From a virus, in the IMG/VR virus record IMGVR_UViG_3300050821_004383, positions 1 through 64,000 of that record: a stretch of DNA of 64,000 bases; one strand, 5' to 3'. The position numbers and the translations under genes are program-made. The notes beneath the pieces were generated by a model. That model saw only the letters and a program-made list of their open reading frames with translations. It ran no database searches and was not told the origin of the DNA. Every line of letters starts with the position of its first letter. The stretch's first letter is position 1. Shown in pieces: positions 23,985-36,921 of the stretch.

Positions 23985-24015
23985 AGGGATGCCCCTAGGC
24001 TAACTTGGCCTGAAA

Positions 24016-24051
24016 CAAAGAAAAAGGCGCACCCGTTAAGATGCGCCTTTT
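24016..24051 (-). terminator. Rho-independent terminator
   Basis: AAAAGGCGCA..TGCGCCTTTT hairpin with T tract. Confidence 0.75.
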
Positions 24052-24055
24052 GAAA

Positions 24056-24490
24056 TTACTTAGTGTGCCACTGACCGTTCGTTGTGCAGAAGAACAGAAC
24101 TGGTGTACCAACCGCGACGGGAGTAAATCCTACGTTCGCGCCAGCGTTATTGATTTGCTCACCTAGTGCGGGCCAAACCTTGAGTCCTGCCGCGCCGTCA
24201 TTGATGATGGTAACTTCCATACCACGTAGTCCCGGTGGTAAGGTCGTAGAATCGTTCAATGTTGCGACGGTTGAAAAACGGGAAATCGGAGTTGAAATCA
24301 CAATGCTATTTCCTTGTGTTCCGGCTGCCGTTGCCGTTAATCCGTCTGACGCCATCTTGGTGCCGTAGAAAAACCCGGATACTGTTTGTCCTGTCAAAAC
24401 TGCGCCGCCTGGACCAAGAACCTGGACAACGTCTAAGTTCTCGCCCATGTCAATGTACTGGTCTCTTGCTGTTGTTGAGGGAATCGCCAT
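24056..24490 (-). CDS. Virion structural protein
   Basis: 144 aa; 'LP....GMEVTIIND...LKVWP..GEQIN' fibre-associated motif. Confidence 0.55.
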   Translation of the reverse strand: MAIPSTTARDQYIDMGENLDVVQVLGPGGAVLTGQTVSGFFYGTKMASDGLTATAAGTQGNSIVISTPISRFSTVATLNDSTTLPPGLRGMEVTIINDGAAGLKVWPALGEQINNAGANVGFTPVAVGTPVLFFCTTNGQWHTK

Positions 24491-24609
24491 TTAAGGCTCC
24501 TTAAAATCAAATTTGCTCGTCAGATAGTGGCCCCGTGCCAAAGCTACCCCGAGACTTGTCGATAACTGCTATTGGATGCTGCGTCGGAGATTTTATTGTC
24601 CGAGAAAAT

Positions 24610-24684
24610 TGGTTCCGGCGTGTGGATTCGAACCACAATTAGCGGATTCAGAGTCCGCAGTCCTGCCAGTTAAACGACATCGGA
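24610..24684 (-). tRNA. tRNA-Gln(CTG)
   Basis: Cloverleaf, loop CTCTGAA, encoded CCA. Confidence 0.9.
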
Positions 24685-24793
24685 ACAGAAATTGGAGCGG
24701 TGTCCTCGTACTCACTAGAGCGATGGGGTCCTTCTCACCTAGGCACTCACCGCCGAGTGTACTCCCAGATTACCAGACCTACGATTACGAAAT

Positions 24794-24869
24794 TGGTTGG
24801 ATGCGAAGGATTCGGACCTTCATCTGACTGATTCAAAGTCAGCCGTGTTGCCAGTTACACCAGCGTCCA
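24794..24869 (-). tRNA. tRNA-Gln(TTG)
   Basis: Loop CTTTGAA; T-loop TCCGAAT; CCA. Confidence 0.9.
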
Positions 24870-24878
24870 ACAGAAAAT

Positions 24879-24953
24879 TGGTCCTACACCGTGGAATCGA
24901 ACCACGTACGCCCGCCGTTTCAAGACGGCGCTCTACCAATGAGCTAGCGTAGG
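24879..24953 (-). tRNA. tRNA-Phe(GAA)
   Basis: Stem CCGTC/GGCGG, loop TTGAAAC; CCA. Confidence 0.85.
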
Positions 24954-24954
24954 A

Positions 24955-25041
24955 TGGAGGAAGAAGATGAAATCGAATCATCAACCCGCTAGAGTTGGCC
25001 TAGTGTTCGAAACTAGTTGAGCGCCTTGCTCACCATCTTCC
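24955..25041 (-). tRNA. tRNA-Ser(CGA)
   Basis: Loop TTCGAAC, long variable arm; CCA. Confidence 0.85.
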
Positions 25042-25511
25042 AAAACTTTTCTACGAATACGGTCTTTGTAATTCTTCTCACACTCGATGCAATCACGACG
25101 AAGACCGTTCCAATTAGTTCTATTCTTTGCAAATCTATCAACAGAGAAGAACTGTTTATGTGTTCGACACCAAGCCTTGCCTTCTGGTGGTGTTATACGA
25201 TTACAACTGGGTTTTCCCAGTGAACCTTGAATGTGGGGTGTATTACAACGCGTGTGAGAAAATGTCACATTATCTAAATCCCAAAACAACTCAGGAGAGC
25301 GATTCTCCCAAGGACGAATGTGCTCAATACTCAAATCATCAACAGACTCAATCATCTTACCACACTTCACACAAACACTGTCACCGTATTTTTGTAATTG
25401 ACGAAACAAAATCATCTTACGAAGACGATTTGCCGCTGCTCCGTGGGACATACCAAGTTGTTCTGCAATTCTAGCACTGCGTGCTGCATGTGATGCGTGT
25501 GAGTTACCCAT
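24981..25511 (-). CDS. HNH homing endonuclease
   Basis: Likely start MGNSHASH; 'CVKC...SIEHIRPW...NVTFSH..CN' plus C-terminal Cys domain; stop lies inside tRNA-Ser(CGA). Confidence 0.85.
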   Translation of the reverse strand: MGNSHASHAARSARIAEQLGMSHGAAANRLRKMILFRQLQKYGDSVCVKCGKMIESVDDLSIEHIRPWENRSPELFWDLDNVTFSHTRCNTPHIQGSLGKPSCNRITPPEGKAWCRTHKQFFSVDRFAKNRTNWNGLRRDCIECEKNYKDRIRRKVLEDGEQGAQLVSNTRPTLAG

Positions 25512-25551
25512 CGTCGTTGGCTCCTTTAAGCACTTGACTGATGTTTTCAAA

Positions 25552-25638
25552 TGGCGGATGATGAAGGAATCGAACCCTCTCGACCTTTCAGTCGGGACAG
25601 TTTTCAAGACTGCTGCTCCCCATGAAGCCCAATCATCC
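25552..25638 (-). tRNA. tRNA-Ser(TGA)
   Basis: Loop CTTGAAA, long variable arm; CCA. Confidence 0.85.
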
Positions 25639-25646
25639 GTAAAAAT

Positions 25647-26003
25647 TTAGGCTACTTTCTTCGCCTTGCGAATCTTCAAATAGTTTCTCACAGGAAACGT
25701 CATCGTGCCCGCTGCGCATGCAAACGGAAGCCATGAGTGTGCCGCGTCAACCACGCCCGCGTATCCGGATGCTGCTAGAAACGCTAGCACGATTGCCGGA
25801 CGAAGGACCCCGGCGTCCAAAAACGTACGGAACGGGTGAGCCTTCTCGGTGAACCACTTCATCAATTTGTTGCCTTCGGTCTGGCCGTAGTACCAGATGC
25901 CCCAGCGGGTCACAAACACATCTGTCAACATCGCCACGTACCAAAGAACGGCAGCGAAGTTGTAAGTAAAGTCTCCGTTCGGAAGCGTGCGGGGGTCGAA
26001 CAT
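25647..26003 (-). CDS. Membrane protein
   Basis: Start MFDPRT; 'D..T..G.....E.N' with hydrophobic helices; resembles the adjacent ORF. Confidence 0.55.
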   Translation of the reverse strand: MFDPRTLPNGDFTYNFAAVLWYVAMLTDVFVTRWGIWYYGQTEGNKLMKWFTEKAHPFRTFLDAGVLRPAIVLAFLAASGYAGVVDAAHSWLPFACAAGTMTFPVRNYLKIRKAKKVA

Positions 26004-26011
26004 TCGGTCTC

Positions 26012-26323
26012 CTAAACTGGTATCTTCAAATTTCTGATAGCTTCTCTGATGTGCGCGTACCCGGCTTGAAATGCAAAGCCTGCTGCCATCACGTAGCCCG
26101 CGTAAACCGAGAAACGATTCGCTAACAACCCAACCGCAACCTCGCCCGCGATAACAAGAGTGCCCAAGCCATAAACCTTCAATGTGCTGGGTCTGGGTCC
26201 GAACAGCCACGCTGTGTCGGCTTCGTAGTAGTCCGGATTCTTCAAGAACCGAACTGTTGTCCATCCATCGAATAATGCCGCGCCGGATAAAACCACCGAC
26301 GCCACTACTAGTGGTATGTTCAT
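26012..26323 (-). CDS. Membrane protein
   Basis: Start MNIPLVV; three hydrophobic segments, 'DGWTT...YYEAD'. Confidence 0.55.
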   Translation of the reverse strand: MNIPLVVASVVLSGAALFDGWTTVRFLKNPDYYEADTAWLFGPRPSTLKVYGLGTLVIAGEVAVGLLANRFSVYAGYVMAAGFAFQAGYAHIREAIRNLKIPV

Positions 26324-26328
26324 AAAAT

Positions 26329-26414
26329 TGGCGGAACGAGGAGGAGTCGAACCTCCACGTGCTTTCACACGCTGGTTTAGCAAACCAGTCCGGCTACCGT
26401 TTCGGCACCGTTCC
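26329..26414 (-). tRNA. tRNA-Ser(GCT)
   Basis: Loop TTGCTAA, long variable arm; CCA. Confidence 0.9.
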
Positions 26415-26457
26415 AGAAAATGTGGGGCGACCGGAGCCGCCCCGATTTTGTCTCAGA

Positions 26458-28140
26458 TTAAACCTCTACCGTAATACGAGGATTCGTCGGTGCGGCTGGT
26501 GGTGCTGGCGGCACGTTCGGTCCTGATGGCGGTAGCGATATCTGTACGCTTACCTCTGGCGGGTCTAGTGAAACCCACGTCACTGTGTTGTCCTGTGTGA
26601 TGGTATTCAACACTGGAGAGAACACTGGACGATGGGCTGCGTCACTGCTGATACCCGGAACAGAGACTTGCTGAAACGATTGGCTAACGCAATCGAATAC
26701 GATGTCCCCAACGTTGAACTGCTTGTTAGGAGCATAAACCGATAGCGTTGCGGATAAGAACATGACAACTGAATCAGTGTCCAGTGTCACTGCGCCTACG
26801 CGAGCCAGCAATCTGCCGTTGACTCTTACGCCCGTGTTAACGGTGATAGACGCTTGAGCCATGATTGTCCCGGAGAAGTTCGTTCCAACTCCGAGTGTTG
26901 CAGAACTGCCGACTTGCCAGAAAATGTTCGCCGCTTGTGCGCCGCCTAGCAATACGATGTTGCTGTTGCTAGCAGCGGTTGTAAGCGTTGAACCAATTTG
27001 AAAAATGAAAACCGCGTTCGGGTCTCCTAGTCCATCGAGAACCAGGGTCCCGGTGATGCCTACCGAACTTGCGTTCTTATAAACACCCGGTGTGAGAGTC
27101 AACCCGCCTAAATCACCCGGGAGAGCCGTGAACGGACTGCCGCTGGATGTGAGTCCAGAAGCCGATGCCGTTGCTGTCTCCGCCGTTGCTGCTGGGTTCG
27201 TCAACGTGATTGCTGTAATCGTCTGGGCTATGCAAACGAACGTTCCGTTGTTGGAAGCGTTAGTAAAGCCTGTGACCGTGAATCTTTGTCCAACTAGAGC
27301 GTTTCCTGCTGGGAAGGTTCCCACGTATGATGTATTTCCGAATGCGTCTGGTGCAGCAACGGAAGTTACAGGATACGGGCCTGTTGCAGAAAAACCGCCT
27401 ATGCCCGAAGGATTAACAGCGGATGCGGCTGCATTGTAAGCCGTTGTTAGTGCGGCCTGCGCTGCTGCTGCAACGAAGTCCCCGGCGTGAAACACGCCCG
27501 AGATTGCTGCTGGTGCTCCGAAACCAGTGATTGAAGTTCCCGGCCAAACTCCCACGTCACCCGCGACGGTTGTTGCGCCCGTGTTGGTGACAGTAGAACC
27601 TGCCAAGATTTCAAAACTGTTTGCCACTCCCACGTTTGGTGGGGTTGGGCTGGGACCGAACGGAACAGCGACGGAAAGAACGCCGACCGAGTTAGCACTT
27701 GAAATGCCGCCTGCGACCGATTCAATCTCGTAGCTGTAAACGTGGCCCGGGACAACTCCGAAATCCTCAAAGAACGGATTCGGTGTAGCAAGCGCCGAGT
27801 GTACCTCTGCGGTTGCGAACGAACTATTTAGTGTCAACGTTGTCGCAGAAGACGCGACGCATTGAAACTGCCCGTTGTTCGCGGAGTTACCGAAACCTGT
27901 AACGCGGAACACCAATCCTACGAAGGCGTTTGCTGCGCCACCGCTGATAACTCCAGTGTAAACGGCTTGACCGTTAGCGGACTGGGATACCGAGGATAAG
28001 ACGAGCGCTGGTCCTTGCTCAATCAGGCCAACGTTGTACGGAACTAAACTCTCATTTCCGGGTGCTGTACCACGGAAAATGTTGTAGCCATCGACCAGGG
28101 ACGGACTTGGGTCCCATGAGATGGTAATAGAATGTGTCAT
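26458..28140 (-). CDS. Ice-binding-like protein (DUF3494) fused to FN3 and virion modules
   Basis: 'FEILAGSTVTNTGATTVAGDVGV.PG', 'DLGGLTLTPGVY', 'GDPNAVFIFQIGSTL', 'AQAANIFWQVGSSATLG', 'NGRLLA..GAVTLD'. Confidence 0.9.
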   Translation of the reverse strand: MTHSITISWDPSPSLVDGYNIFRGTAPGNESLVPYNVGLIEQGPALVLSSVSQSANGQAVYTGVISGGAANAFVGLVFRVTGFGNSANNGQFQCVASSATTLTLNSSFATAEVHSALATPNPFFEDFGVVPGHVYSYEIESVAGGISSANSVGVLSVAVPFGPSPTPPNVGVANSFEILAGSTVTNTGATTVAGDVGVWPGTSITGFGAPAAISGVFHAGDFVAAAAQAALTTAYNAAASAVNPSGIGGFSATGPYPVTSVAAPDAFGNTSYVGTFPAGNALVGQRFTVTGFTNASNNGTFVCIAQTITAITLTNPAATAETATASASGLTSSGSPFTALPGDLGGLTLTPGVYKNASSVGITGTLVLDGLGDPNAVFIFQIGSTLTTAASNSNIVLLGGAQAANIFWQVGSSATLGVGTNFSGTIMAQASITVNTGVRVNGRLLARVGAVTLDTDSVVMFLSATLSVYAPNKQFNVGDIVFDCVSQSFQQVSVPGISSDAAHRPVFSPVLNTITQDNTVTWVSLDPPEVSVQISLPPSGPNVPPAPPAAPTNPRITVEV

Positions 28141-28334
28141 GAACTGCTCCTTGCACGCAATAAACTACATGCGCGTTGGGAGCAACGTGATACCCAGCTA
28201 GCTGACGCAACCACAATCCTGATTGTCGCACTCTATGGCGAGAGCGCGAGGACCGGACACATTCATTTTCAGTCACTTCCAAAGAAGTGAACCAAAAGGG
28301 AAGGAGGCTTTAACTCCGACTGACTACCTGATGC

Positions 28335-28439
28335 TTACTTCTTTGGATTACTTACACAAAATTTGCAAACTGGTCTTCTGTGAGGATGGCTGTAAATTAG
28401 TTCCTCTGCCAGTTTCTTGCATACGGGGCACATCTTCAT
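28335..28439 (-). CDS. Tiny Zn-finger protein
   Basis: Own translation MKMCPVCKKLAEELIYSHPHRRPVCKFCVSNPKK; GGAGG RBS. Confidence 0.5.
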   Translation of the reverse strand: MKMCPVCKKLAEELIYSHPHRRPVCKFCVSNPKK

Positions 28440-28533
28440 GGCTGTCACCTCCAGCCATAATACTACCACACCCGTGGTACCGCGTCTGTTCAATATTGGA
28501 CAGTACTGTTAATACAAGACACTTATCTAAAAT

Positions 28534-28609
28534 TGGCAGGTCATGAGGGATTCGAACCCCCACCGCATCGTTTTGGAGACGAGCATGCAACCAGTAACAC
28601 TTATGGCCT
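28534..28609 (-). tRNA. tRNA-Trp(CCA)
   Basis: Loop CTCCAAA; CCA end. Confidence 0.9.
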
Positions 28610-28618
28610 GTTGAAAAT

Positions 28619-28706
28619 TGGTGGAAAGTCGAGGACTCGAACCTCGGAAGCCCACAAGGGGCATCTGGTTTACAGCCAGAAGCAATTGCCGCTATGCGAA
28701 CCTTCC
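28619..28706 (-). tRNA. tRNA-Tyr(GTA)
   Basis: Loop CTGTAAA, long variable arm. Confidence 0.9.
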
Positions 28707-28778
28707 ACAATGCTAGTTGCGCCTCGGTGGCTCTATGGACTGCTCTCACCGATATGTTTAATGTCACAGCGCAAAACT

Positions 28779-28852
28779 TGGAGCCTCGTCGAGGAATCGG
28801 ACCCCGGCGTTCGCTTTACGAAAGCGACGTACTGCCACTATACTAACAAGGC
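28779..28852 (-). tRNA. tRNA-Thr(CGT)
   Basis: Loop TTCGTAA; T-loop TCCGATT. Confidence 0.9.
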
Positions 28853-28861
28853 TCGGAAAAT

Positions 28862-28935
28862 TGGAGCGAAATGCGGAAATCGAATCCGCGCCTGGACCTT
28901 GGCAAGGTCCCGTTCTGCCACTATACCAATCTCGC
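28862..28935 (-). tRNA. tRNA-Gly(GCC)
   Basis: Loop TTGCCAA; U73. Confidence 0.9.
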
Positions 28936-28947
28936 CCAGAAAATTTG

Positions 28948-29019
28948 CCGACCGTATTAGCCGTTATACGGACCCAGGTTGTTGAGACCCAGGAGAGGAT
29001 TCGAACCTCAAATCGTCGG
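28948..29019 (-). ncRNA. Circularly permuted tRNA-like RNA (YrlA/Y-RNA-like architecture)
   Basis: Order: CCGAC, T arm (TGAGG TTCGAAT CCTCT), closed acceptor hairpin (CCTGGGT/ACCTGGG), D arm (CGTA..TACG), GTCGG. Confidence 0.7.
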
Positions 29020-29081
29020 ACTTCTCGGACGCGTGGCTGGCCGTGTCACAGCCCTTTGGACTCGCGCTACCCGATTAGTAT

Positions 29082-29157
29082 TGGAGCACAATCGTGGATT
29101 CGAACCACGGTGACCGAGGTACAAGCTCGGTATATTGGACCGCTATATGAATCGTGC
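29082..29157 (-). tRNA. tRNA-Thr(TGT)
   Basis: Loop CTTGTAC. Confidence 0.9.
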
Positions 29158-29158
29158 T

Positions 29159-29232
29159 TGGAGCTTCGACGTGGAATTGAACCACGACTTGTTCCTTACC
29201 AAGGAACCGTTCTGCCGTTAGACTATCAAAGC
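29159..29232 (-). tRNA. tRNA-Thr(GGT)
   Basis: Loop TTGGTAA. Confidence 0.9.
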
Positions 29233-29243
29233 TCGGAAATTAT

Positions 29244-29708
29244 TTAGGCGTGGTCACCCTTGTCGCCCTTATCGCCTTTGTCACCCTTGTCGCCACGGTC
29301 GCCCTTGTCTCCTTTATCACCCTTGGAGCCTACTGCGCCGTCCTTGCCATCGACGCCTTTATCGCCTGCGTCGCCCTTATCACCTTTGTCGCCCGGGTCG
29401 CCCTTCAAACCGTGTACGCCGTTCTCGCCTGGGTCGCCCTTGTCGCCCTTCAAGCCATGCTCACCGTTGGTGCCAGCATCGCCTTTGTCGCCCTTCGGGC
29501 CGACTGGGCCGGGTACGCCTTGTGGTCCCACAGGGCCTTGGAGACCTTGTGCGCCGACCGGACCCGCGATACCGCGCGGACCTAGAGGGCCTGCTTGACC
29601 TGCCGGACCTGCTGGTCCGACGTGCTTCTTCAAACTCAAAATGAATGCAGCTACAGACACTGCGGCTGTAACAGCAGAAACCAATTCAGCGGGGGCAATC
29701 ATTGGCAT
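29244..29708 (-). CDS. Membrane-anchored collagen-like protein
   Basis: Start MPMIAPAEL (AAGGAG RBS); N-terminal hydrophobic helix then GXY repeats (GDKGDK). Confidence 0.85.
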
Positions 29709-29734
29709 CTCCTTATTTTTAACTTCTACAAAAT

Positions 29735-29810
29735 TGGAGCGGCGAACGGGATTCGAACCCGTACGTTCTGCTTGGAAGGCAGACATGCTAGCCGTTAACA
29801 TCACAGCCGC
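29735..29810 (-). tRNA. tRNA-Gly(TCC)
   Basis: Loop CTTCCAA. Confidence 0.9.
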
Positions 29811-29818
29811 TTTGAAAT

Positions 29819-29897
29819 TGGTTGCGGAGGTGGGATTTGAACCCACGATAACAAGGTTATGAGTCTTGTGTTTTAGACCAGGCTAAACTACCCCGCT
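29819..29897 (-). tRNA. tRNA-Met(CAT), initiator-like
   Basis: Loop CTCATAA; 1:72 mismatch. Confidence 0.85.
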
Positions 29898-29907
29898 ATA
29901 GAAAATT

Positions 29908-29983
29908 TGGTTCTGGTCGCTGGATTCGAACCAGCTACCTTCCGCTTATCGAGCGGACGCCCGTCCACATGTGCTCGACCAGA
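29908..29983 (-). tRNA. tRNA-Ile(GAT)
   Basis: Loop TCGATAA (C33). Confidence 0.85.
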
Positions 29984-29991
29984 ACAGAAAT

Positions 29992-30067
29992 TGGTGGACC
30001 GTTCCGGCTCTGCCCCGGACGCCTCGGAGGTGCAAGCTCCGCGTTCTCCTGAATGAACTAACAGCCC
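29992..30067 (-). tRNA. tRNA-Ala(TGC)
   Basis: Loop CTTGCAC; G3:U70 present; atypical T-loop GGCAGAG. Confidence 0.85.
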
Positions 30068-30071
30068 AAAA

Positions 30072-30491
30072 TCATCGTCCACGTTTAGTATCGTGGCACT
30101 CTTTACAGTTTATTTGAAACCCACTCCAACGAGTTTCTTTCTTATAAAAGTTATCCACCGGAAGAAACTGCTGATGACCACCGCACCATGACGTGCCTTC
30201 TGGTCCAACAAACTTTCGTAAACTGCCTCCGTGATGCACATGGGGACGATTACATTGTAAATGCGAGAACGCTATATTATCCAAATCCCAAAAGAGTTCA
30301 GCAGAACGACCTTCCCATGGAAGCTTATGCTCTATGCTTAACTCTTCTACGACTAAAATCTCTTTGTTGCACTTGAAACAAATATTTTCTTTCAACTTTT
30401 TCAAAAGATGAAACAAAATATTCTTTCTTAATCTTCCATTGGCCGTGCCGTGAGGCATGCCTAGCGTTGCAGCTTTCTGCGTATTACTCAT
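30072..30491 (-). CDS. HNH homing endonuclease
   Basis: 'CFKC...SIEHKLPW...NIAFSH..CN'; paralogue of 24981-25511. Confidence 0.85.
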   Translation of the reverse strand: MSNTQKAATLGMPHGTANGRLRKNILFHLLKKLKENICFKCNKEILVVEELSIEHKLPWEGRSAELFWDLDNIAFSHLQCNRPHVHHGGSLRKFVGPEGTSWCGGHQQFLPVDNFYKKETRWSGFQINCKECHDTKRGR

Positions 30492-30529
30492 AATCGTTAA
30501 CCCTCTTTGGGTTGTTGATTAAGTTAAAT

Positions 30530-30606
30530 TGGTACTCGCGGCGGGATTTGAACCCGCGTTCTTGGCTTGAAAGGCCAGCGTCCTGGGCCGACTAGACGAC
30601 ATGAGC
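30530..30606 (-). tRNA. tRNA-Glu(TTC)
   Basis: Loop CTTTCAA. Confidence 0.9.
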
Positions 30607-30689
30607 ACTACATGCGCCGATACAATTCGCTTTTTGGGGAAGTGGCTTTATGCATTTATAGCCAATCCGATAATTGTATCGTACGAACT

Positions 30690-30765
30690 TGGTAGCGTCG
30701 GCGGGATTTGAACCCGCGTGACCAGATTGAGAATCTGGCATCCTAGACCACTAGATGACATCGCC
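30690..30765 (-). tRNA. tRNA-Glu(CTC)
   Basis: Loop TTCTCAA. Confidence 0.9.
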
Positions 30766-30773
30766 ACAGAAAT

Positions 30774-30866
30774 TGGTTGTCAGCCTCGGTGCCGACCCGA
30801 GTCGTCGCGCTAATCAGGCGCTCTCCTCGACTTATAAGGTCGAGCCGCATGCCGATGCTGCCGACA
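30774..30866 (-). tRNA. Atypical tRNA with TAT (Ile) anticodon and long variable arm
   Basis: Acceptor TGTCGGC/GCTGACA+ACCA; 6-bp anticodon stem, loop CTTATAA; V-arm GCGC..GCGC; T-loop GTCGGCA. Confidence 0.7.
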
Positions 30867-30954
30867 AAAGGCTGGGCCGACGGGGAATCTAACCCACAAT
30901 GGGGCAGCCTCTGGCGTTCCTTCCAGCGCATCCCATCACTCGTCCCAGAGAAAT

Positions 30955-31030
30955 TGGTAGCTCGTAAGAGAATCGAACTCTTCCTATCCGGGTGTAGGCC
31001 GGATGCATACGACCAGTTTGCTAACAAGCT
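30955..31030 (-). tRNA. tRNA-Val(TAC)
   Basis: Loop CCTACAC (C33). Confidence 0.85.
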
Positions 31031-31037
31031 ACAGAAA

Positions 31038-31154
31038 TCAACGGTGGTAATAATGAATCCAGAGAACCAGGGCACTCGCGCTAATCACTACCCCCAGGAT
31101 GTTGCACACTGTCCGTATCAGTGCCATCCACTGGTCGAATGTTAGCCTTTTCAT
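31038..31154 (-). CDS. Small membrane peptide
   Basis: Own translation MKRLTFDQWMALIRTVCNILGVVISASALVLWIHYYHR. Confidence 0.45.
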   Translation of the reverse strand: MKRLTFDQWMALIRTVCNILGVVISASALVLWIHYYHR

Positions 31155-31341
31155 TGTCCTTCTTCTTTGTTCTGGTCTCGTACCACTTTCTTCTCAACCC
31201 CAAGTATTCGAGTTGAGCCTTCAAACTTTCTTCCGCTGCGTGGCGCATCGCGCGGTCATCGCGCCAAATGCCCACCAGGAAGTACAACGCGACTAAGTCA
31301 ACTACCAACGCCGCAACCGAAGCTACGTTCGCTATAGTCAT
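31081..31341 (-). CDS. Small membrane-anchored protein
   Basis: 86 aa with N-terminal hydrophobic helix. Confidence 0.5.
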   Translation of the reverse strand: MTIANVASVAALVVDLVALYFLVGIWRDDRAMRHAAEESLKAQLEYLGLRRKWYETRTKKKDNEKANIRPVDGTDTDSVQHPGGSD

Positions 31342-31435
31342 ATTCGCTCACAAAGTTGTGCCCCAACTAGTAACTTCAACAGACCGTCAGGGTCTTGCCG
31401 CGCGTATCTGCTAGTTTACTCGGCGCGGAAAAATT

Positions 31436-31511
31436 TGGTCGAGCGCCAGAGACTCGAACTCTGACCCTACCCGTTAAAAGCGGGATATGCTGCCCCTAAC
31501 ACCTGCACTCG
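31436..31511 (-). tRNA. tRNA-Lys(TTT)
   Basis: Loop CTTTTAA. Confidence 0.9.
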
Positions 31512-31796
31512 ACGGTATTTCTTTGTGAAACTGTGTCCAAGCGCCTTAGTCAACTCTTCGTGGCACTCTTGACATTGCAGTTCACATTTCAAAACTTCTT
31601 TCCAAAACTTTTCATCTGAATACGAAGAACCATCAGCGAGTGTGAACTCTTTTGTTTCCGGGTCCTTGTGATGAAACTGTAATTCTTCTTGCGACCCGCA
31701 AGTCTCGCACCGCGTTCCAAGAAACATGATTGCGCGAATGCGACGAAGTTGCCAGCGGCGCTTCATGTACTCATTCATGTATTCATTTGTACTCAT
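31467..31796 (-). CDS. HNH endonuclease
   Basis: 'CETCG...LQFHHKDP..K...KCELQCQECH'; stop lies inside tRNA-Lys(TTT). Confidence 0.85.
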   Translation of the reverse strand: MSTNEYMNEYMKRRWQLRRIRAIMFLGTRCETCGSQEELQFHHKDPETKEFTLADGSSYSDEKFWKEVLKCELQCQECHEELTKALGHSFTKKYRRVQVLGAAYPAFNG

Positions 31797-31802
31797 AAAA
31801 AT

Positions 31803-31879
31803 TGGTGCGCCGCCTCAGACTTGAACTGAGACCAAGCCTCCTTAAGAGGGAGGTATTCTGCCGCTCGAAATCGCAGCGC
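31803..31879 (-). tRNA. tRNA-Lys(CTT)
   Basis: Loop CTCTTAA. Confidence 0.9.
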
Positions 31880-31892
31880 ACTGAAAATTATT

Positions 31893-32187
31893 TGGTTGCG
31901 CTATAGCCCGGTTTCTGTCGAGGACGAACATTCCTCTAAGCACGCTACCCGCTCGTCATCCTGCTCAATAAGCAGTCAGAGCCTATTTGCGCTTGCACCC
32001 GTGTGGAGTGCCTTCGCTCGAATGAGGGTTTCCAACATGTGAAGATGGATAACCCTACGAAGCCTTACCCGAATCCTTGCGGACCCCGCATCTTCCACGG
32101 CACGGTGTTGAGATGTGACCGGAACTTCCTCGCTGACGTTTAGCCACTATCCGGACTCATACGCCATCGCGTTCGTCTACGCTACCA
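31893..32187 (-). ncRNA. rnpB: Phage-encoded RNase P RNA
   Basis: CR-I GAGGAAGTTCCGGT and CR-V ACAGAAACCGGGCT form P4 with bulged U; P2 GACGAAC/GTTCGTC; P1; GGTGCAAG; P15 with GGT; P16/P17. Confidence 0.9.
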
Positions 32188-32300
32188 AAATTAATCCGGG
32201 GGAGGTTTTCGTTACCCGTCCCGGCACCCAAACGATTCGACTAGTCTACTTCGAGTGTTGCCCACAAGGGGCACCCCCGCACGTGTAGGGCCGACAAACT

Positions 32301-32377
32301 TGGACTCCTCGGCTAGACTGTAACTAGCTAAGAGCGGGTTTGCAATCCGCCGTCTCGACATCTTCGACATCGAGGAG
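32301..32377 (-). tRNA. tRNA-Cys(GCA)
   Basis: Loop TTGCAAA; U73; atypical T-loop TTACAGT. Confidence 0.85.
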
Positions 32378-32382
32378 AAACT

Positions 32383-32468
32383 TGGTGCGCCGCACAGGAT
32401 TCGGACCTGTACGCCATTTCTGGCCGGGGGTTTTAAGTCCCCTACGTCTGCCGTTCCGCCAGCAGCGC
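32383..32468 (-). tRNA. tRNA-Leu(TAA)
   Basis: Loop CTTAAAA, long variable arm. Confidence 0.9.
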
Positions 32469-32522
32469 AATATCTACCCGGCTTGCTGTATATCCTTCAA
32501 CAGTGTTCGCCACCGGGAATCT

Positions 32523-32611
32523 TGGTCGCCCGCCCCGGAGTCGAACCGGGACTCTACTTTATTCGAACCGCGTTTTGAGTGCGGCGCGTCTGCCAGTTCC
32601 GCCAGCAGGCG
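32523..32611 (-). tRNA. tRNA-Leu(CAA)
   Basis: Loop CTCAAAA, long but weakly paired variable arm. Confidence 0.85.
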
Positions 32612-32613
32612 AT

Positions 32614-32688
32614 TGGTAGCCCATGAAGGACTCGAACCTTCATCGCTTGATTCGTAGTCAAGCATCCTATCCATTGAACGAACAGGCC
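32614..32688 (-). tRNA. tRNA-Arg(ACG)
   Basis: Loop CTACGAA. Confidence 0.9.
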
Positions 32689-32698
32689 ACTGTAAAAT

Positions 32699-32776
32699 TG
32701 GAGGCCCCGGTCGGATTCGAACCGACTTTTGTACGGGTTAGAACGCCGTTGAGATATCCATTTTCTCGACGGAGCC
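32699..32776 (-). tRNA. tRNA-Arg(TCT)
   Basis: Loop GTTCTAA, C31:C39 mismatch, A20 present. Confidence 0.75.
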
Positions 32777-32785
32777 TCTGAAACT

Positions 32786-32872
32786 TGGTGGGCCGCGAGG
32801 GATTCGAACCCCCACGCTTTTCACGGCACTGGTTTCTAAGACCAGCATGTCTGCCAATTCCATCAGCAGCCC
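32786..32872 (-). tRNA. tRNA-Leu(TAG)
   Basis: Loop CTTAGAA, long variable arm. Confidence 0.9.
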
Positions 32873-33027
32873 ACAGAAATCCTGGCGGTATTTGTCATCG
32901 CGCCCCGCCGGAAGCGCATCGGATGATGTTTAGTCACCGAGAGTTTTGCCCCTTACCAGTGCACGAGGCCACGCACCCAGTAGCTAGCTGGGGATGTTTA
33001 ACTCTCTGTTGCAACGTCGTACAAAAT

Positions 33028-33101
33028 TGGTCAGGAATCGTGGAATCGAACCACGGCCTCATGCTTCCGACGCACGTAGACTACCACTATCAGAATACCT
33101 G
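33028..33101 (-). tRNA. tRNA-Pro(CGG)
   Basis: Loop GTCGGAA. Confidence 0.85.
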
Positions 33102-33110
33102 ACGTAAAAT

Positions 33111-33185
33111 TGGCTCCATCCCTAGGATTCGAACCTAGACCTGTTCGGTTAACAGCCGAGCGTCCTACCGTTGGACCAGAATGGA
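33111..33185 (-). tRNA. tRNA-Asn(GTT)
   Basis: Loop CTGTTAA. Confidence 0.9.
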
Positions 33186-33192
33186 ACTGAAC

Positions 33193-33573
33193 TCAATGCC
33201 CGGTAGTTTGATATTTTATTCGACGACGTTCTGTTGTGTACACTTTTCTCATGTACCCAGCAACTTGTCCTCTTCGAACTCGTATCGCTTCTTCGGGCGA
33301 ATACTTTCTTCTAATTCGACGGGCATCTGTGTTGCAGGCTCTGTGACTGAAAGCGATGTTCTCCAAAGAGAAGAACACGGTCCTCGGGTCACTGCTGTGC
33401 AACCACGGCTCTTTGTGGTCTATCGAGAGGTCTCGACTTTCCGCAATTTGCTTACCGCATCGAAAACAAAAATCTCTTTTCACTTCCTTCACTAACCCGA
33501 AAAGAATTTCTTTTCTAAGTTGGTGACAGGCTGTTCCAAACGGAACACCTAATTGCTGTTGTTTCTTATCCAT
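33193..33573 (-). CDS. HNH homing endonuclease
   Basis: 'CFRC...SIDHKEPW...NIAFSH..CN'; third paralogue. Confidence 0.85.
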   Translation of the reverse strand: MDKKQQQLGVPFGTACHQLRKEILFGLVKEVKRDFCFRCGKQIAESRDLSIDHKEPWLHSSDPRTVFFSLENIAFSHRACNTDARRIRRKYSPEEAIRVRRGQVAGYMRKVYTTERRRIKYQTTGH

Positions 33574-33670
33574 TCAAACCATCCTTTAAGATGGTTCGAA
33601 TCCGATACTGTACCAGCCACTCGGTTTAAGTCCGAGAACTTTTACAACCCGGGCGTTACTCCGGTGAAAT

Positions 33671-33748
33671 TGGCGGTCCATACGGGATTTGAACCCGTGG
33701 TCTTCTCCGTGACAGGGAGACGAGGACTCCTGACTCCTCCAACAGACC
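33671..33748 (-). tRNA. tRNA-Asp(GTC)
   Basis: Loop CTGTCAC. Confidence 0.9.
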
Positions 33749-33757
33749 GCAGAAAAT

Positions 33758-33836
33758 TGGTCGAGGAACCTGGATTTGAACCAGGGGTCTCATGCTTCCA
33801 AAGCACGCGGGAACGGCCAGACTTCCCCATTCCTCG
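33758..33836 (-). tRNA. tRNA-Pro(TGG)
   Basis: Loop TTTGGAA. Confidence 0.9.
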
Positions 33837-33999
33837 AAAAATTTCTCGCTTTCCTCAGCGTCGCCACTTAAGGCTAGGTGGACTATCTGCGAGATGCTGA
33901 CCCGTCACTGGGCCACTTGATTCTTTAGTTGACCGTGTAAATGCCGGGTCCCATCGGTGTTGCTCGTCCCAAACTCTCTGTGTCTTTCATCGTGAAACC

Positions 34000-34028
34000 A
34001 TCCTAGCACAGTTCTCGAACTTTGTCAA
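34000..34028 (-). promoter_or_regulatory. Sigma70 promoter driving the tRNA array
   Basis: TTGACA-17-TAGGAT with TG extension. Confidence 0.75.
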
Positions 34029-34047
34029 GCACTATTTTCGAGAATCT

Positions 34048-34362
34048 TTACTTCTTCGAATAAGCGCGGCCTGGGTAGTTACGAGCGTATGCGTGAGCGT
34101 CGTCTCCCGGCTGCTCGGTCTGCTTGCCGATGTGCTCCATGCTGCACGGCAATCCCTTGTGGGAACCGTTGGCGCTTACGCCCATCGAGTTCGAACGTCC
34201 GGCCTTCAATGCGGCTGCATCGTGAGAAGTCTCGTGACGAACCTTCTCGGCCTTGGGTGTGCTACGGCCTGGATACTTGTGCGCGTGCGGCTGGTCGTGG
34301 GTCATCACTGTCTCGGGTGCGTGGGCCATGCCCGCCGCTGTCTTTTCGCTGTACTTCGCCAT
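34048..34362 (-). CDS. Hydrophilic hypothetical protein
   Basis: 104 aa, internal repeat 'HA....YPGR'. Confidence 0.55.
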   Translation of the reverse strand: MAKYSEKTAAGMAHAPETVMTHDQPHAHKYPGRSTPKAEKVRHETSHDAAALKAGRSNSMGVSANGSHKGLPCSMEHIGKQTEQPGDDAHAYARNYPGRAYSKK

Positions 34363-34424
34363 TTTCTCATTCCTCGCGTTGCCTCACCTTTCGGTACGGG
34401 GCACGCTTCGTACTTCTAAATTTT

Positions 34425-34501
34425 TGGGGTGGGTGATGGGTCTCGAACCCACTCTGGCCCGATTCACAGTCGAGCGCGTCACCTGTTTCGCCTCACTCAC
34501 C
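34425..34501 (-). tRNA. tRNA-His(GTG)
   Basis: Loop CTGTGAA; encoded G-1 and C73. Confidence 0.9.
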
Positions 34502-34512
34502 ATCGTAGAAAT

Positions 34513-34541
34513 ACTCTACCACGGAAGCGGAGCGTTGTCAA
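34513..34541 (-). promoter_or_regulatory. Sigma70 promoter upstream of tRNA-His
   Basis: TTGACA-17-TAGAGT with TG extension. Confidence 0.7.
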
Positions 34542-34548
34542 GAACTAT

Positions 34549-34722
34549 TTACAGAACGGCCTTCACGCGGGCAATGACTGCCTTTGCGTCAGCAACGACT
34601 TCTGCTTCAATCTTTGCAATCTCGGCCTTGACAGCACTTAGCTTCAAGTTGGCCGGATGCTTTACTCGCCCGAAGCCGAAGCCTACGGCGAGCGCTACTG
34701 TAACTGCTGCGATGGTGAACAT
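34549..34722 (-). CDS. Small membrane-anchored helical protein
   Basis: Start MFTIAAV with AAGGAG RBS. Confidence 0.55.
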   Translation of the reverse strand: MFTIAAVTVALAVGFGFGRVKHPANLKLSAVKAEIAKIEAEVVADAKAVIARVKAVL

Positions 34723-34732
34723 TGATTGCTCC

Positions 34733-34984
34733 TTAGTTATTCGGCCCGTGAGTCTTGTGGTTCGCCTCATGGGAATTGATTGGGTATCTGTTTTCGCCCG
34801 TCTGCTGTTTCGCTAGACGTACTGCCGCGCCCTTCTCAATCGTGGGCGACGCCTGGACGTGCTTGTCTTCTGCCGGGACACCGACACGGGTCGGCGGCGT
34901 ATCTGTGAAAGTCGGATTTACGGGAGGCGCATCGTGTTCGCCGCGATTCAAGTTACCGTTGCGTGTTGTTTCTGGGAACTGCAT
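34733..34984 (-). CDS. Hypothetical protein
   Basis: Start MQFPETT. Confidence 0.5.
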   Translation of the reverse strand: MQFPETTRNGNLNRGEHDAPPVNPTFTDTPPTRVGVPAEDKHVQASPTIEKGAAVRLAKQQTGENRYPINSHEANHKTHGPNN

Positions 34985-34992
34985 AAACCCTC

Positions 34993-35169
34993 TTATGGAT
35001 AAATCTTCTCGTACAACCAACCTGCCATCGAGACGCCGAGTCCGACGTAAGCAACCAGCGGGTGACGGAGAACCAAGCCGCCGAATGCCAGCATGTAACC
35101 GACGAACTGGAGCCAAGGTTGAATCTTGATGTATTGGTCAATGCTGTTGAAAATCGTTGAGAGACTCAT
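34993..35169 (-). CDS. Small membrane protein
   Basis: Own translation MSLSTIFNSIDQYIKIQPWLQFVGYMLAFGGLV... Confidence 0.5.
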   Translation of the reverse strand: MSLSTIFNSIDQYIKIQPWLQFVGYMLAFGGLVLRHPLVAYVGLGVSMAGWLYEKIYP

Positions 35170-35333
35170 ATCACTCCGTCCTTCTTAAGTCTTAACATGT
35201 CACCAACGAAATGAACCGCGAATGCCACACTAAACAGAACCTGTGATAGTCCTCGAAGAAACAGGAGAACGGCTAGCGCTGCAACGAAGCCTGCTGTTTG
35301 AATCACTAAAATCGTTTTGTCTGAGAACTTCAT
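35166..35333 (-). CDS. Small membrane protein
   Basis: Own translation MKFSDKTILVIQTAGFVAALAVLLFL... Confidence 0.5.
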   Translation of the reverse strand: MKFSDKTILVIQTAGFVAALAVLLFLRGLSQVLFSVAFAVHFVGDMLRLKKDGVI

Positions 35334-35334
35334 C

Positions 35335-35448
35335 TCAAGTCCAAGGTAGAACGTACTCGGTGTAAATCACTAGAACAGCGAAAATAATCATGACGACCAC
35401 AGCGATAGCGCCGAGAACTACGAGTCCACCGAGAGCAATCTTCTTCAT
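35335..35448 (-). CDS. Small membrane peptide
   Basis: Own translation MKKIALGGLVVLGAIAVVVMIIFAVLVIYTEYVLPWT. Confidence 0.5.
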   Translation of the reverse strand: MKKIALGGLVVLGAIAVVVMIIFAVLVIYTEYVLPWT

Positions 35449-35627
35449 GACTTCTTGTGCTCCACGAGCCTTCCGCCTGTGAGAGAACCGGGGTCCTTCC
35501 CACGCATGATGGCACGCATCGAACTGCCCTTGTATTCGTAAACTCTGTGTCCGTCCGGATTCTCGAAGGTGACGCGGACTGTGTTGTTGTCAATCTTCTC
35601 TTTCGAGAGAATGTTCTTCTTGCTCAT
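35445..35627 (-). CDS. Hypothetical protein
   Basis: 60 aa, translationally coupled. Confidence 0.55.
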   Translation of the reverse strand: MSKKNILSKEKIDNNTVRVTFENPDGHRVYEYKGSSMRAIMRGKDPGSLTGGRLVEHKKS

Positions 35628-35767
35628 TGTCGGAGCCTGTTAGACATCTGCACGAGTTCGTGAAGAGTCATCTCGTCTGGGAGTTCGTTGAAGTCCACGC
35701 CGAGGTCGAGCAATTCCTCGAAGAGTTCTTCAACGTCTTCTGAGGAATAAATGTCTTTGTACTTCAT
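35624..35767 (-). CDS. Small acidic protein
   Basis: Own translation MKYKDIYSSEDVEELFEELLDLGVDFNELPDEM... Confidence 0.5.
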   Translation of the reverse strand: MKYKDIYSSEDVEELFEELLDLGVDFNELPDEMTLHELVQMSNRLRQ

Positions 35768-36015
35768 GCGAGTGCTCTCTGGTAGAAGACGAACCACTTA
35801 GTGATTCTGGGTTCTTCTCCGCGCGTCTTCAACCACATCTTCTCGCCGGGTCGGAGAACGTAAACGGCCTTGTCGTGGGTTAGTTCCACTTCATGCTTGC
35901 CGACGTTGTGGAACTGGAACTGCTTTCTAAAGTCGCTCGGGTCCATAGTGACGGTGCACTGGACTCCTGCGTCCCAACAAATGTTATTGAACTCTTTCGA
36001 GACGTAATCAGGCAC
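35764..36015 (-). CDS. Hypothetical protein
   Basis: 83 aa, coupled. Confidence 0.55.
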   Translation of the reverse strand: MPDYVSKEFNNICWDAGVQCTVTMDPSDFRKQFQFHNVGKHEVELTHDKAVYVLRPGEKMWLKTRGEEPRITKWFVFYQRALA

Positions 36016-36304
36016 GGGAGGTCTCGGACAAGAATCTGTAACTCTGTCCGGCTCGGTGACTTAACTCAGCGGCGGCTTCCGCCACGGAGTCGTCTATCGC
36101 GGACGCAAGAGCGAAGCTGGAGAAGTTCGCGTAATCCGCGTAGCCGCTAATGACAGCGTCCTGCCCCATGATGTACGTTGTGTACGCCGCTGGTGCAGCA
36201 ACGGGTGCCACGCAAGCGGGTCCCTCGGAAAGGAGGATGCTTGGGGCGACTGCGGCCCCCACTGCTCCCACCCCTAGCCATTGAAGGAACTTGCGGCGGT
36301 TCAC
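36008..36304 (-). CDS. Tat-signal protein made of major-capsid-like fragments
   Basis: MNRRKFL twin-arginine motif; 19/31 aa identical to a segment of the capsid protein at 8398-9423. Confidence 0.75.
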   Translation of the reverse strand: MNRRKFLQWLGVGAVGAAVAPSILLSEGPACVAPVAAPAAYTTYIMGQDAVISGYADYANFSSFALASAIDDSVAEAAAELSHRAGQSYRFLSETSRA

Positions 36305-36921
36305 GGTCTCGGTGCCTTCGGTCGTCCTAGGAGAAACGCGGATTGCGCTTCACGAAGGTCGTTAAGAAGTTCAGCCTCTGCTTCCAATCTTTGAACTCGC
36401 GATTCCAAATCTGTAGTCGTGTCGTAAACGCCGGACAACTTCTTGTTGACCCAAACGTGGTCGGACGGCATCGACGGCGCTGGTGCTGGGTTGCCCAGCG
36501 ACTTCTCAATCTTGGTAACACGCGCTTCCACGCCTACCATGTGCTGGTAAGCAGCGTTTCCTACGCCGACCTGACTTTCAACTTGGCCGACGCGCTCGTT
36601 CAAGCGCTGAATCTGTTTCAACAGCGCTTCCACATCTTTGCGAACTTGGTCGAAACCCTTCTGGGTCGATTCGCGGAGATTGACCAGCGATTGAACGTTA
36701 GACTGGTCGCGGAGGGTCTGCGCGGTCTCTCGCTTGTCGTTCACAGCGATGGCTTCATTCAGCTTCACGAGAATCTCTTCTTCTCGTTTGAATGATAGTT
36801 TCGCTACATCGATAACTCGGCTTTCTACCGCACGAATCTCGTCGGTGTTAGCGGCAGTTTTGCCGATTAAATCGAATACCAAGTCGATGATAGATGGCTT
36901 GGGGGTCTTCTTGTTTGACAT
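36301..36921 (-). CDS. Coiled-coil protein
   Basis: 206 aa with heptad pattern. Confidence 0.65.
   Translation of the reverse strand: MSNKKTPKPSIIDLVFDLIGKTAANTDEIRAVESRVIDVAKLSFKREEEILVKLNEAIAVNDKRETAQTLRDQSNVQSLVNLRESTQKGFDQVRKDVEALLKQIQRLNERVGQVESQVGVGNAAYQHMVGVEARVTKIEKSLGNPAPAPSMPSDHVWVNKKLSGVYDTTTDLESRVQRLEAEAELLNDLREAQSAFLLGRPKAPRP

Follow-up and report, generated by a model that had tools for sequence, protein, structure and literature searches.

The DNA analysed here (hereafter the window) comprises the first 64 kb of a 98.5-kb phage genome from IMG/VR (record IMGVR_UViG_3300050821_004383) that was judged 97% complete. The genome belongs to a tailed, uncultured phage with its terminase and portal genes at 11-16 kb of the window. 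We describe a minus-strand cluster of about 10 kb (24610-34500), in which 33 transfer RNA (tRNA) genes stand together with an RNase P RNA, further folded RNAs and open reading frames (ORFs; Table 1). All Rfam tRNA matches of the genome fall inside this array and none elsewhere.

An earlier, sequence-only reading had called this cluster a self-contained RNA operon. Much of its inventory was recovered by our analysis: the 33 CCA-encoding tRNAs on one strand for 20 amino acids, the A/T-rich trailers behind most of them, the two promoters at the upstream end (both of the TG-extended sigma-70 type) and the RNase P RNA within the array. The label self-contained is wrong, however, because about 5.0 of the 9.9 kb consists of protein ORFs (the gaps of 300-2100 nt are ORFs on the same strand) and because no rnpA (PF00825), CCA-adding enzyme or RtcB gene was found in the 98.5-kb genome.

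Table 1. Features of the array and its flanks, listed in the direction of the minus strand. L numbers denote related loci.
Feature	Position	Strand	Remarks
Promoter P1	34513-34541	-	TTGACA-17-TAGAGT, TG-extended; ends 12 nt before tRNA-His
tRNA-His(GUG)	34425-34500	-	first gene of the array
ORF, 104 amino acids (aa)	34048-34362	-	own ribosome-binding site; without family match
Promoter P2	34000-34028	-	TTGACA-17-TAGGAT, TG-extended; motif repeated in L008, L012
Leader, ~155 nt	33837-33993	-	between promoter P2 and tRNA-Pro; 3' 78 nt 86-88% identical in L012, L159
tRNA-Pro(UGG), Asp(GUC)	33671-33836	-	
HNH endonuclease ORF, 126 aa	33193-33573	-	
tRNA-Asn(GUU), Pro(CGG)	33028-33185	-	
X155, ~155 nt	32873-33027	-	five helices and H-type pseudoknot; abuts tRNA-Leu(UAG)
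tRNA-Leu(UAG), Arg(UCU), Arg(ACG), Leu(CAA)	32523-32872	-	
Insert h, 54 nt	32469-32522	-	hairpin
tRNA-Leu(UAA)	32383-32468	-	
tRNA-Cys(GCA)	32301-32377	-	manual; not called by ARAGORN or Rfam
Element g	32189-32300	-	structured leader; 3' hairpin loop UAACGAAAA
RNase P RNA, 297 nt	31892-32188	-	type-A derived; RF00010
tRNA-Lys(CUU)	31803-31879	-	12 nt downstream of RNase P RNA, 8 nt from end of Rfam match
HNH endonuclease ORF, 109 aa	31467-31796	-	last 45 nt and stop codon in tRNA-Lys(UUU)
tRNA-Lys(UUU)	31436-31511	-	
Element f, 88 nt	31348-31435	-	common to four phages; five pairs changed on both sides
ORF, 86 aa	31081-31341	-	without family match
tRNA-Val(UAC)	30955-31030	-	
Element e	30867-30954	-	tRNA-sized three-way junction ending in CC and a U run
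tRNA(UAU), 93 nt	30774-30866	-	long variable arm (class-II-like); A73; T loop GUCGGCA
tRNA-Glu(CUC)	30690-30765	-	
Insert d, 83 nt	30607-30689	-	long hairpin; z = -2.4 (30612-30689)
tRNA-Glu(UUC)	30530-30606	-	
HNH endonuclease ORF, 139 aa	30072-30491	-	
tRNA-Ala(UGC), Ile(GAU), Met(CAU), Gly(UCC)	29735-30067	-	
Collagen-repeat ORF	29244-29734	-	tail-fibre-like
tRNA-Thr(GGU), Thr(UGU)	29082-29232	-	
Element c	28936-29081	-	5' hairpin module and circularly permuted tRNA-like domain
tRNA-Gly(GCC), Thr(CGU)	28779-28935	-	
Insert b, 72 nt	28707-28778	-	z = -1.3
tRNA-Tyr(GUA), Trp(CCA)	28534-28706	-	
Ice-binding-like ORF, 560 aa	26458-28140	-	PF11999
Terminator-like hairpin	26424-26443	-	G+C-rich; within the array, closely preceding tRNA-Ser(GCU)
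tRNA-Ser(GCU)	26329-26414	-	
ORF, 205 aa	25647-26264	-	sub-threshold DUF5658 match
tRNA-Ser(UGA)	25552-25638	-	
HNH endonuclease	24981-25551	-	in ORF 24981-25607; frame enters tRNA-Ser(CGA) by 61 nt before its stop
tRNA-Ser(CGA), Phe(GAA), Gln(UUG)	24794-25041	-	
Insert a, 109 nt	24685-24793	-	ends in CCA and AUUU linker; z = +0.35
tRNA-Gln(CUG)	24610-24684	-	last tRNA of the array
ORF, 144 aa, and hairpin	24022-24490	-	ORF 24056-24490, then strong intrinsic-terminator-like hairpin 24051-24022

tRNA genes and the phage RNase P RNA

The 33 tRNA genes, all on the minus strand, cover 20 of 20 amino acids. ARAGORN called 30 of them, Rfam added one (Ala), manual inspection one (Cys) and ARAGORN under relaxed settings one (UAU); the relaxed output is mostly noise and includes spurious transfer-messenger RNA calls over the RNase P gene of relatives. 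A cloverleaf with anticodon, as described by RF00005, was identified by ARAGORN in 30 cases and by Rfam in one, while the Cys tRNA and the long-arm UAU tRNA were recognised through comparative stems and relaxed ARAGORN. CCA is encoded in all 33 genes. An A(U/G)UU trailer follows directly 3' of 25 of the 33, and U occupies position -1 in 23 (tRNA-His has G at this position).

Odd elbows are seen in just three of the 33 tRNAs, namely Ala, Cys and the long-arm UAU tRNA. The Rfam-detected tRNA-Ala(UGC) (29992-30067) has a G3:U70 pair and the unusual T loop GGCAGAG. In tRNA-Cys(GCA) a perfect 7-bp acceptor stem and U73 are combined with a D loop that lacks GG and a T loop reading UUACAGU; the homologue in L012 has different acceptor and T stems, both fully compensated, and also U73, and the copy in L165 is 97% identical. 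The UAU tRNA was found with relaxed settings in the window, and the copies of relatives are called by ARAGORN at its default.

Long-arm tRNAs with this anticodon (AUA codon) occur in related phages in at least 13 distinct copies of 89-95 nt, among them L007 6648-6736, L008 1898-1988, L022 7585-7673 and L004 9513-9607. Their variable arm has a covarying stem and a conserved loop (UAGAUYA / CUGAUUA). In sister phages the same slot is taken by a normal tRNA-Ile(UAU) of 74-75 nt. A separate observation concerns the sole tRNA with a CAU anticodon (29819-29897, minus strand), which carries an A1xA72 mismatch atop its acceptor stem. Such a mismatch is a trait of bacterial initiator tRNAs. A separate elongator tRNA-Met or tRNA-Ile2(CAU) was not found.

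The RNase P RNA lies in the middle of these genes. Its match to RF00010 (31888-32188) spans the whole model with 92.5 bits and an E-value of ~1e-27. Elsewhere in the clade the Rfam gathering cut-off of 100 bits is exceeded (102 bits for L012/L015, 101 bits for L011), and more canonical phage copies (L002, L014 and L004) reach 134-171 bits. Helices P1-P5, P8-P11 and P15-P17 are present. The core is kept as well: conserved region (CR) I (GAGGAAGUUCCGG), CR-V (ACAGAAACCGG), the GCAA of J5/15, AAAUAGG and UAGAGGAAUG, together with the GGU of L15 inside CGGGUAG, around which P15-P17 covary. In RNase P the L15 GGU base-pairs with the RCCA at the 3' end of its substrate. CR-II, CR-III, P13, P14 and P18 are absent and are deleted in the covariance-model alignment; in the clade alignment, J11/12 and J12/13 give way to a variable hairpin plus a CAUUCGAG block specific to the clade.

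Covariation was assessed on ten divergent phage sequences from the same clade as the window, covering P1, P2, P4, P5, P8, P9, P10/11 and P15-17. Pair cells are paired in 96.3% of cases, against 36-40% in slid registers. Changes on both sides are found at 37 of 64 pairs, including P4, P2, P1, P9 and P15-17, and none of 500 shuffles reaches any of these measures. The P4 helix formed by CR-I and CR-V is 100% paired; three of its eight pairs show double-sided changes (CCGG/CCGG becomes CAGG/CCUG or CUGG/CCAG), and its bulged U is present in all ten sequences. Given this degree of pairing and covariation, the RNase P RNA is a selected folded RNA rather than a decaying copy. Judged from the sequences, the catalytic domain is intact and the specificity domain (S-domain) remodelled; catalytic activity is predicted.

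Some RNase P genes of the clade also carry extra small GNRA-capped hairpins, either at the P18 position (L021 5797-6119) or between P2 and CR-V (L022, L024, L006 and L011). As these extra hairpins differ among clade members, peripheral helices are gained and lost rapidly in the phage RNase P family.

With three exact-match patterns, RNase P RNAs embedded in tRNA arrays were found in about 35 IMG/VR contigs. A pattern placing CR-I and CR-V 185-215 nt apart hits 14 viral contigs, and all 14 carry the RNase P RNA among tRNAs (3-43 ARAGORN tRNAs per locus, including loci just 1.9 and 4.9 kb long). The clade-specific pattern adds three viral contigs and 21 metagenome loci; shorter or longer spacing adds 24 viral contigs, 18 of which have at least three tRNAs inside 1.5 kb. 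Members of the shortest-spacing class are almost always without CR-II/III. As a cellular control, the CR-I...CR-V pattern has at least 120 loci; among the matches listed, one of 120 has at least five tRNAs nearby. Among these matches, the link between RNase P RNA and tRNA array is specific to viruses.

The cellular exception (L086) is Mesorhizobium sp. M1312 (NZ_JAMYLQ010000033.1), with five tRNA genes within 8 kb; the locus may represent an array, borne by a prophage or transferred, with an additional RNase P RNA. A short CR-I...CR-V distance was rejected as a marker of the phage type, since the cellular matches are mostly ordinary chromosomal rnpB genes. When the RNase P region was compared by blastn with 50,697 phage records, no match was obtained, and in open-access full-text literature we found no description of a phage-encoded RNase P RNA.

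Companion RNAs and protein genes of the array

The sequence-only reading further noted at least eight structured non-tRNA inserts in tRNA-sized slots and proposed that tRNA punctuation releases a set of undescribed small RNAs, processed by a phage-specific RNase P. Nine non-tRNA slots of 54-155 nt indeed exist, but compensatory changes and conservation are limited to five of them (X155, g, c, e and f). These five covarying elements match no Rfam family, and so the idea of undescribed RNAs stands for them; the other four (a, b, d and h) have neither a homologue nor support for a structure. For no insert does Rfam give a match at E up to 1 (24000-35500), and for X155 and c none up to 10. Over the same interval, HDV-like (hepatitis delta virus-like)/theta ribozymes, GOLLD and ROOL have no match at E up to 1. 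When the inserts were compared with 740 clade tRNAs using blastn-short, resemblance was confined to the T and D arms of element c, and the inserts were therefore rejected as decayed tRNAs.

The best documented companion is X155. A covariance model built on five copies finds 16 loci with 12 distinct sequences, all from the window's clade, and X155 is absent from the other phage lineages searched. In every locus found its position is the same, upstream of tRNA-Leu(UAG). The model-fitted alignment is 98.2% paired with 19 of 25 pairs changing on both sides; an independent MAFFT alignment of five copies is 98% paired and 9 of its 31 pairs covary. The pseudoknot covaries too (GGCGG/CCGCC, GGUGG/CCACC and GGCGA/UCGCC, with GGAAC/GUUCC and GGCGU/ACGCC in further copies).

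Part of X155 (32999-33010, minus strand) is identical over 12 nt (UGCAACAGAGAG) to nt 125-137 of Escherichia coli M1 RNA, in the CR-II region. The L007 copy even agrees with M1 RNA at 25 of 27 positions, a score equalled by none of 300 shuffles. We rejected the idea that X155 is a detached RNase P specificity domain, and thus one half of a split RNase P, on several grounds. The M1-like stretch belongs to helix H1, a helix with covariation in distant members; a hidden Markov model of 119 bacterial and phage S-domains misses X155, and the reverse search is empty; Rfam has no RNase P match on X155; and ACAGAGAG occurs in just one of about 145 RNase P cores. Comparison of the sequences leads us to judge the identity coincidental.

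In eight distinct phages, element g lies directly against the 5' terminus of the RNase P RNA. It is 95.4% paired and 16 of 28 pairs covary, based on eight distinct sequences of which some are weak matches. In element c, the closing stem is followed by the T arm (UUCGAAU), then by an acceptor-like stem of 7 bp closed by a loop, and finally by a D arm with GG. L156 and L151/L161 have homologues, in which closing stem, T arm and D arm are kept by compensatory changes (in L151 CCAAC/GUUGG, CGCGG/CCGCG and CGUCA/UGACG, respectively); the acceptor-like stem is degenerate in L156. For element e, the stem of the central hairpin is fully swapped in L163/L150, from CUGG/CCAG to CCAG/CUGG.

Two further observations concern these RNAs. 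A 37-nt hairpin module with a GAGUCCAAAGGGCUGUGACACGGCCAGCCAC core (29030-29066, minus strand; L012 4863-4899; also in L155, L156 and L151) is 97% identical between phages whose remaining sequence is about 75% alike. Depending on the phage, it stands on the 5' or on the 3' side of a tRNA-like domain. It may be mobile, or it may be a shuffled module for protein binding. Relatives moreover have an extra conserved element of ~130 nt that is absent from the window (L007 3823-3967, L012 4692-4926, L155 3039-3267). A canonical T arm and the start motif UGACGCCGAACGGCAAGGCGC characterise this element, which lies between the Tyr and Trp tRNAs or between two Gly tRNAs and from its sequence looks like a further tRNA-derived RNA family of the clade.

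The protein genes were assigned to families by Pfam and PHROG matches; four are HNH endonucleases, and three ORFs gave no family match. Homologous DNA of the 86-aa ORF occupies other slots in L008 and L021, which makes this ORF look mobile. Two HNH frames overlap tRNAs (31467-31511, 45 nt in Lys-UUU; 24981-25041, 61 nt in Ser-CGA). Having their stop codons inside tRNAs, they would be left as non-stop HNH mRNA by tRNA excision. The ice-binding-like and collagen-repeat genes are unusual passengers for a tRNA array.

Transcription, maturation and rival explanations

Promoters P1 and P2 are the two best sigma-70-type matches in 24000-36500. Their extended motif, TTGACA-N14-TGNTANNNT, occurs seven times in the window against 0.83 expected, and none of 100 shuffles reaches seven. 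Inside 24600-34000 no other strong promoter of the extended -10 type was found. At the far side, the hairpin at 24051-24022 is, from its sequence, the likely end of the transcription unit.

Taking these results together, we consider it probable that the region is a promoter-driven, one-strand translation-supply module that holds every tRNA gene of the phage and includes the RNase P RNA, its companions and the accessory ORFs. Long transcripts would start at the two promoters. RNase P would cut each tRNA at its 5' end (+1), mostly behind a U at -1, and its L15 GGU could pair with the encoded CCA. A host endonuclease of the RNase E type would cut the AUUU trailers, after which exonucleases would trim to CCA. 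Such cuts would set free everything between the tRNAs, namely the RNase P RNA together with X155, g, c, e, f and the mRNAs of the ORFs. Because the conserved inserts have an AUUU-type linker and a tRNA directly 3', tRNA processing would be their natural release route. This route is modelled on bacterial and T4 tRNA processing, and it would resemble mitochondrial tRNA punctuation and the T4 cluster.

The phage RNase P RNA would most likely join the RnpA protein of the host, as the phage encodes no rnpA, and could raise or secure 5' maturation for the burst of phage pre-tRNAs. Without the CR-II/CR-III module the ribozyme is perhaps less dependent on a canonical tRNA elbow; speculatively, loss of this module adapts it to the odd-elbow tRNAs (Ala, Cys and long-arm UAU) and to tRNA mimics. 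A bolder version seems rather unlikely to us: a phage-specific tRNA maturation in which the remodelled RNase P RNA with host RnpA acts independently of, or in competition with, host RNase P and handles odd-elbow pre-tRNAs and mimics, while g, X155 and the YrlA-like companions act on host proteins for tRNA handling or defence.

Several results weigh against the module as we describe it. Generic promoter-like sites in the region number nine against 7.7 expected, which is not beyond chance, and the terminator-like hairpin at 26443-26424 sits within the array; for these two reasons a single transcript over the array is not established. The score of the window's RNase P RNA is under the gathering cut-off, and the RNA lacks the CR-II/CR-III motifs for elbow docking. 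To our knowledge, CR-II/CR-III bind the tRNA elbow in all bacterial RNase P enzymes studied. The models to which alignments A10 and A12 were fitted had been built from a few of the sequences aligned, a procedure biased towards the modelled structure, and several low-scoring matches were included. No homologue of insert a, b, d or h turned up in about 40 related loci; these four are peculiar to this phage and their structure is unsupported. Folding is no better than that of shuffles for nine of ten tested spacers (z-scores from -1.3 to +0.85) and only d stands out, so that thermodynamic stability is uninformative as evidence of structure for these nine. Finally, the nearest isolate, Tunturiibacter phage Tunturi_3 (97.6 kb), shares only 27% terminase identity. 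With three tRNAs, and no RNase P RNA found in it, Tunturi_3 is uninformative as a guide to host or function. It originates from Arctic tundra soil, an observation that may be set beside the ice-binding-like and collagen-repeat passengers of the array.

Only slightly less probable than its opposite is the view that the short inserts are functionless debris, i.e. scars of recombination, HNH homing or gene decay that processing simply discards. The four inserts without homologues and the unremarkable z-scores are what debris would look like, as are the irregular presence and absence of slots among relatives and the HNH genes and mobile 86-aa ORF in neighbouring slots. X155, g, c, e and f are much harder to explain in this way: they keep fixed syntenic positions and show many compensatory changes, including a covarying pseudoknot. 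Nor are the inserts recognisable as decayed tRNAs, the arms of c excepted.

Somewhat less probable again, yet to be taken seriously, is that the region is a patchwork of transcription units, made up of early tRNA blocks, HNH cassettes and separately expressed morons (for instance the ice-binding gene), with punctuation operating only within sub-clusters. In phage T4 the tRNA region is transcribed in two sub-clusters (cited in PMC11143913). The two promoters, 500 nt apart, and the terminator-like hairpin after the ice-binding ORF would suit such an arrangement. On the other hand, every feature lies on one strand, no other strong extended -10 promoter is seen within 24600-34000, and the only strong terminator is the one that follows the last ORF.

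That the RNase P-like RNA is no working ribozyme, being a decaying captured rnpB or a decoy that titrates RnpA or competes with host RNase P, is quite improbable despite its score, its missing CR-II/CR-III, P13, P14 and P18 and the lack of a protein subunit gene in the phage, since a decaying copy would not hold 96% pairing and 37 covarying pairs over ten diverged phages, the catalytic core is complete (CR-I, CR-V, the bulged U of P4, J5/15 GCAA, L15 GGU), all cis substrates encode CCA and independent phage lineages retain such RNAs beside tRNAs. By sequence alone, the RNA may still serve as a decoy.

Comparison with known systems

RNase P RNA counts as a universal housekeeping ribozyme of cells. 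Here it appears as a recurrent and structurally constrained passenger of phage tRNA arrays, its specificity domain trimmed or replaced. Phages may secure tRNA maturation besides tRNA supply. The phage RNAs are also natural minimal variants with which one can ask how much of the S-domain substrate recognition needs, and the array adds new RNA families with defined boundaries and neighbours (X155, the g leader and a Ro-less YrlA-like mimic). Already known are phage tRNA arrays with HNH genes, interleaved stable RNAs, YrlA RNAs of phages and theta ribozymes beside tRNAs.

In the tRNA cluster of T4, multimeric precursors are cut by RNase P, and the stable species 1 and 2 RNAs (rnaC and rnaD) are interleaved with the tRNAs. 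Our array resembles it as a phage tRNA cluster with small non-tRNA RNAs in between. T4 differs in having eight tRNAs, several of them without an encoded CCA, in lacking an RNase P RNA and in extra RNAs that show no sequence relation to ours (T4 tRNA processing is reviewed in PMC11143913).

Large tRNA arrays with HNH genes and GOLLD RNA are found in mycobacteria and their phages (PMC6582537, PMC9569102). The likeness extends to the thirty-odd tRNAs, the HNH genes, a structured non-tRNA RNA and the rare tRNA-Ile(UAU); unlike these arrays, ours has no GOLLD or ROOL match, and its tRNAs are accompanied by the RNase P RNA and by small RNAs that are new. Theta (HDV-like) ribozymes beside phage tRNAs were proposed to lessen the dependence on host RNases (Kienbeck et al. 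2024, PMC10879173). They act in cis on 3' trailers, whereas RNase P acts in trans on 5' leaders, and no HDV-like match is present here.

Element c is comparable to the YrlA Y RNAs, which have a permuted T arm, a loop-closed acceptor stem and a D arm and also occur in phages (Chen et al. 2014, PMC4201824). The order of modules is the same, with the closing stem replacing the anticodon arm. A conserved CG(U/C)CCGA 5' of the tRNA-like domain comes near to the Ro60-contact motif GGUCCGA, although the exact GNCGAAN0-1G is absent. YrlA RNAs are defined by adjacency to rsr (PMC4201824); in contrast, the phage genome has no match to Ro60/Rsr (TROVE, PF05731), and Rfam finds nothing on element c at E up to 10.

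The phage RNase P RNA itself is most readily compared with type A (RF00010), as in E. coli M1 RNA (rnpB). Shared features are the CR-I/CR-V P4 helix with its bulged U, P1-P3, P5, P8-P11, P15-P17, GCAA and GGU. Unlike M1 RNA (377 nt) it measures 297 nt, is encoded by a phage within a tRNA array and has no cognate rnpA; CR-II, CR-III, P13, P14 and P18 are missing, and a variable hairpin and CAUUCGAG take the place of J11/12 and J12/13. The minimal type-T RNase P RNA of Pyrobaculum, as Lai et al. reportedly described in 2010, keeps the catalytic domain and loses most of the specificity domain. Type T is archaeal, chromosomal and the sole RNase P RNA of its cell, whereas the phage RNA retains P8-P12-like helices.

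The closest report that we found concerns Mycobacterium austroafricanum and M. sp. YC-RL4, which have two extra RNase P RNA homologues with altered S-domains beside an endonuclease gene, thought to be horizontally acquired (Behra et al. 2022, PMC9569102). These RNAs are located on bacterial chromosomes, are not tied to a tRNA array and come without a family-wide covariation analysis (PMC9569102). Likened by description, they share with the phage RNase P RNA that an extra RNA of this kind carries an altered specificity domain.

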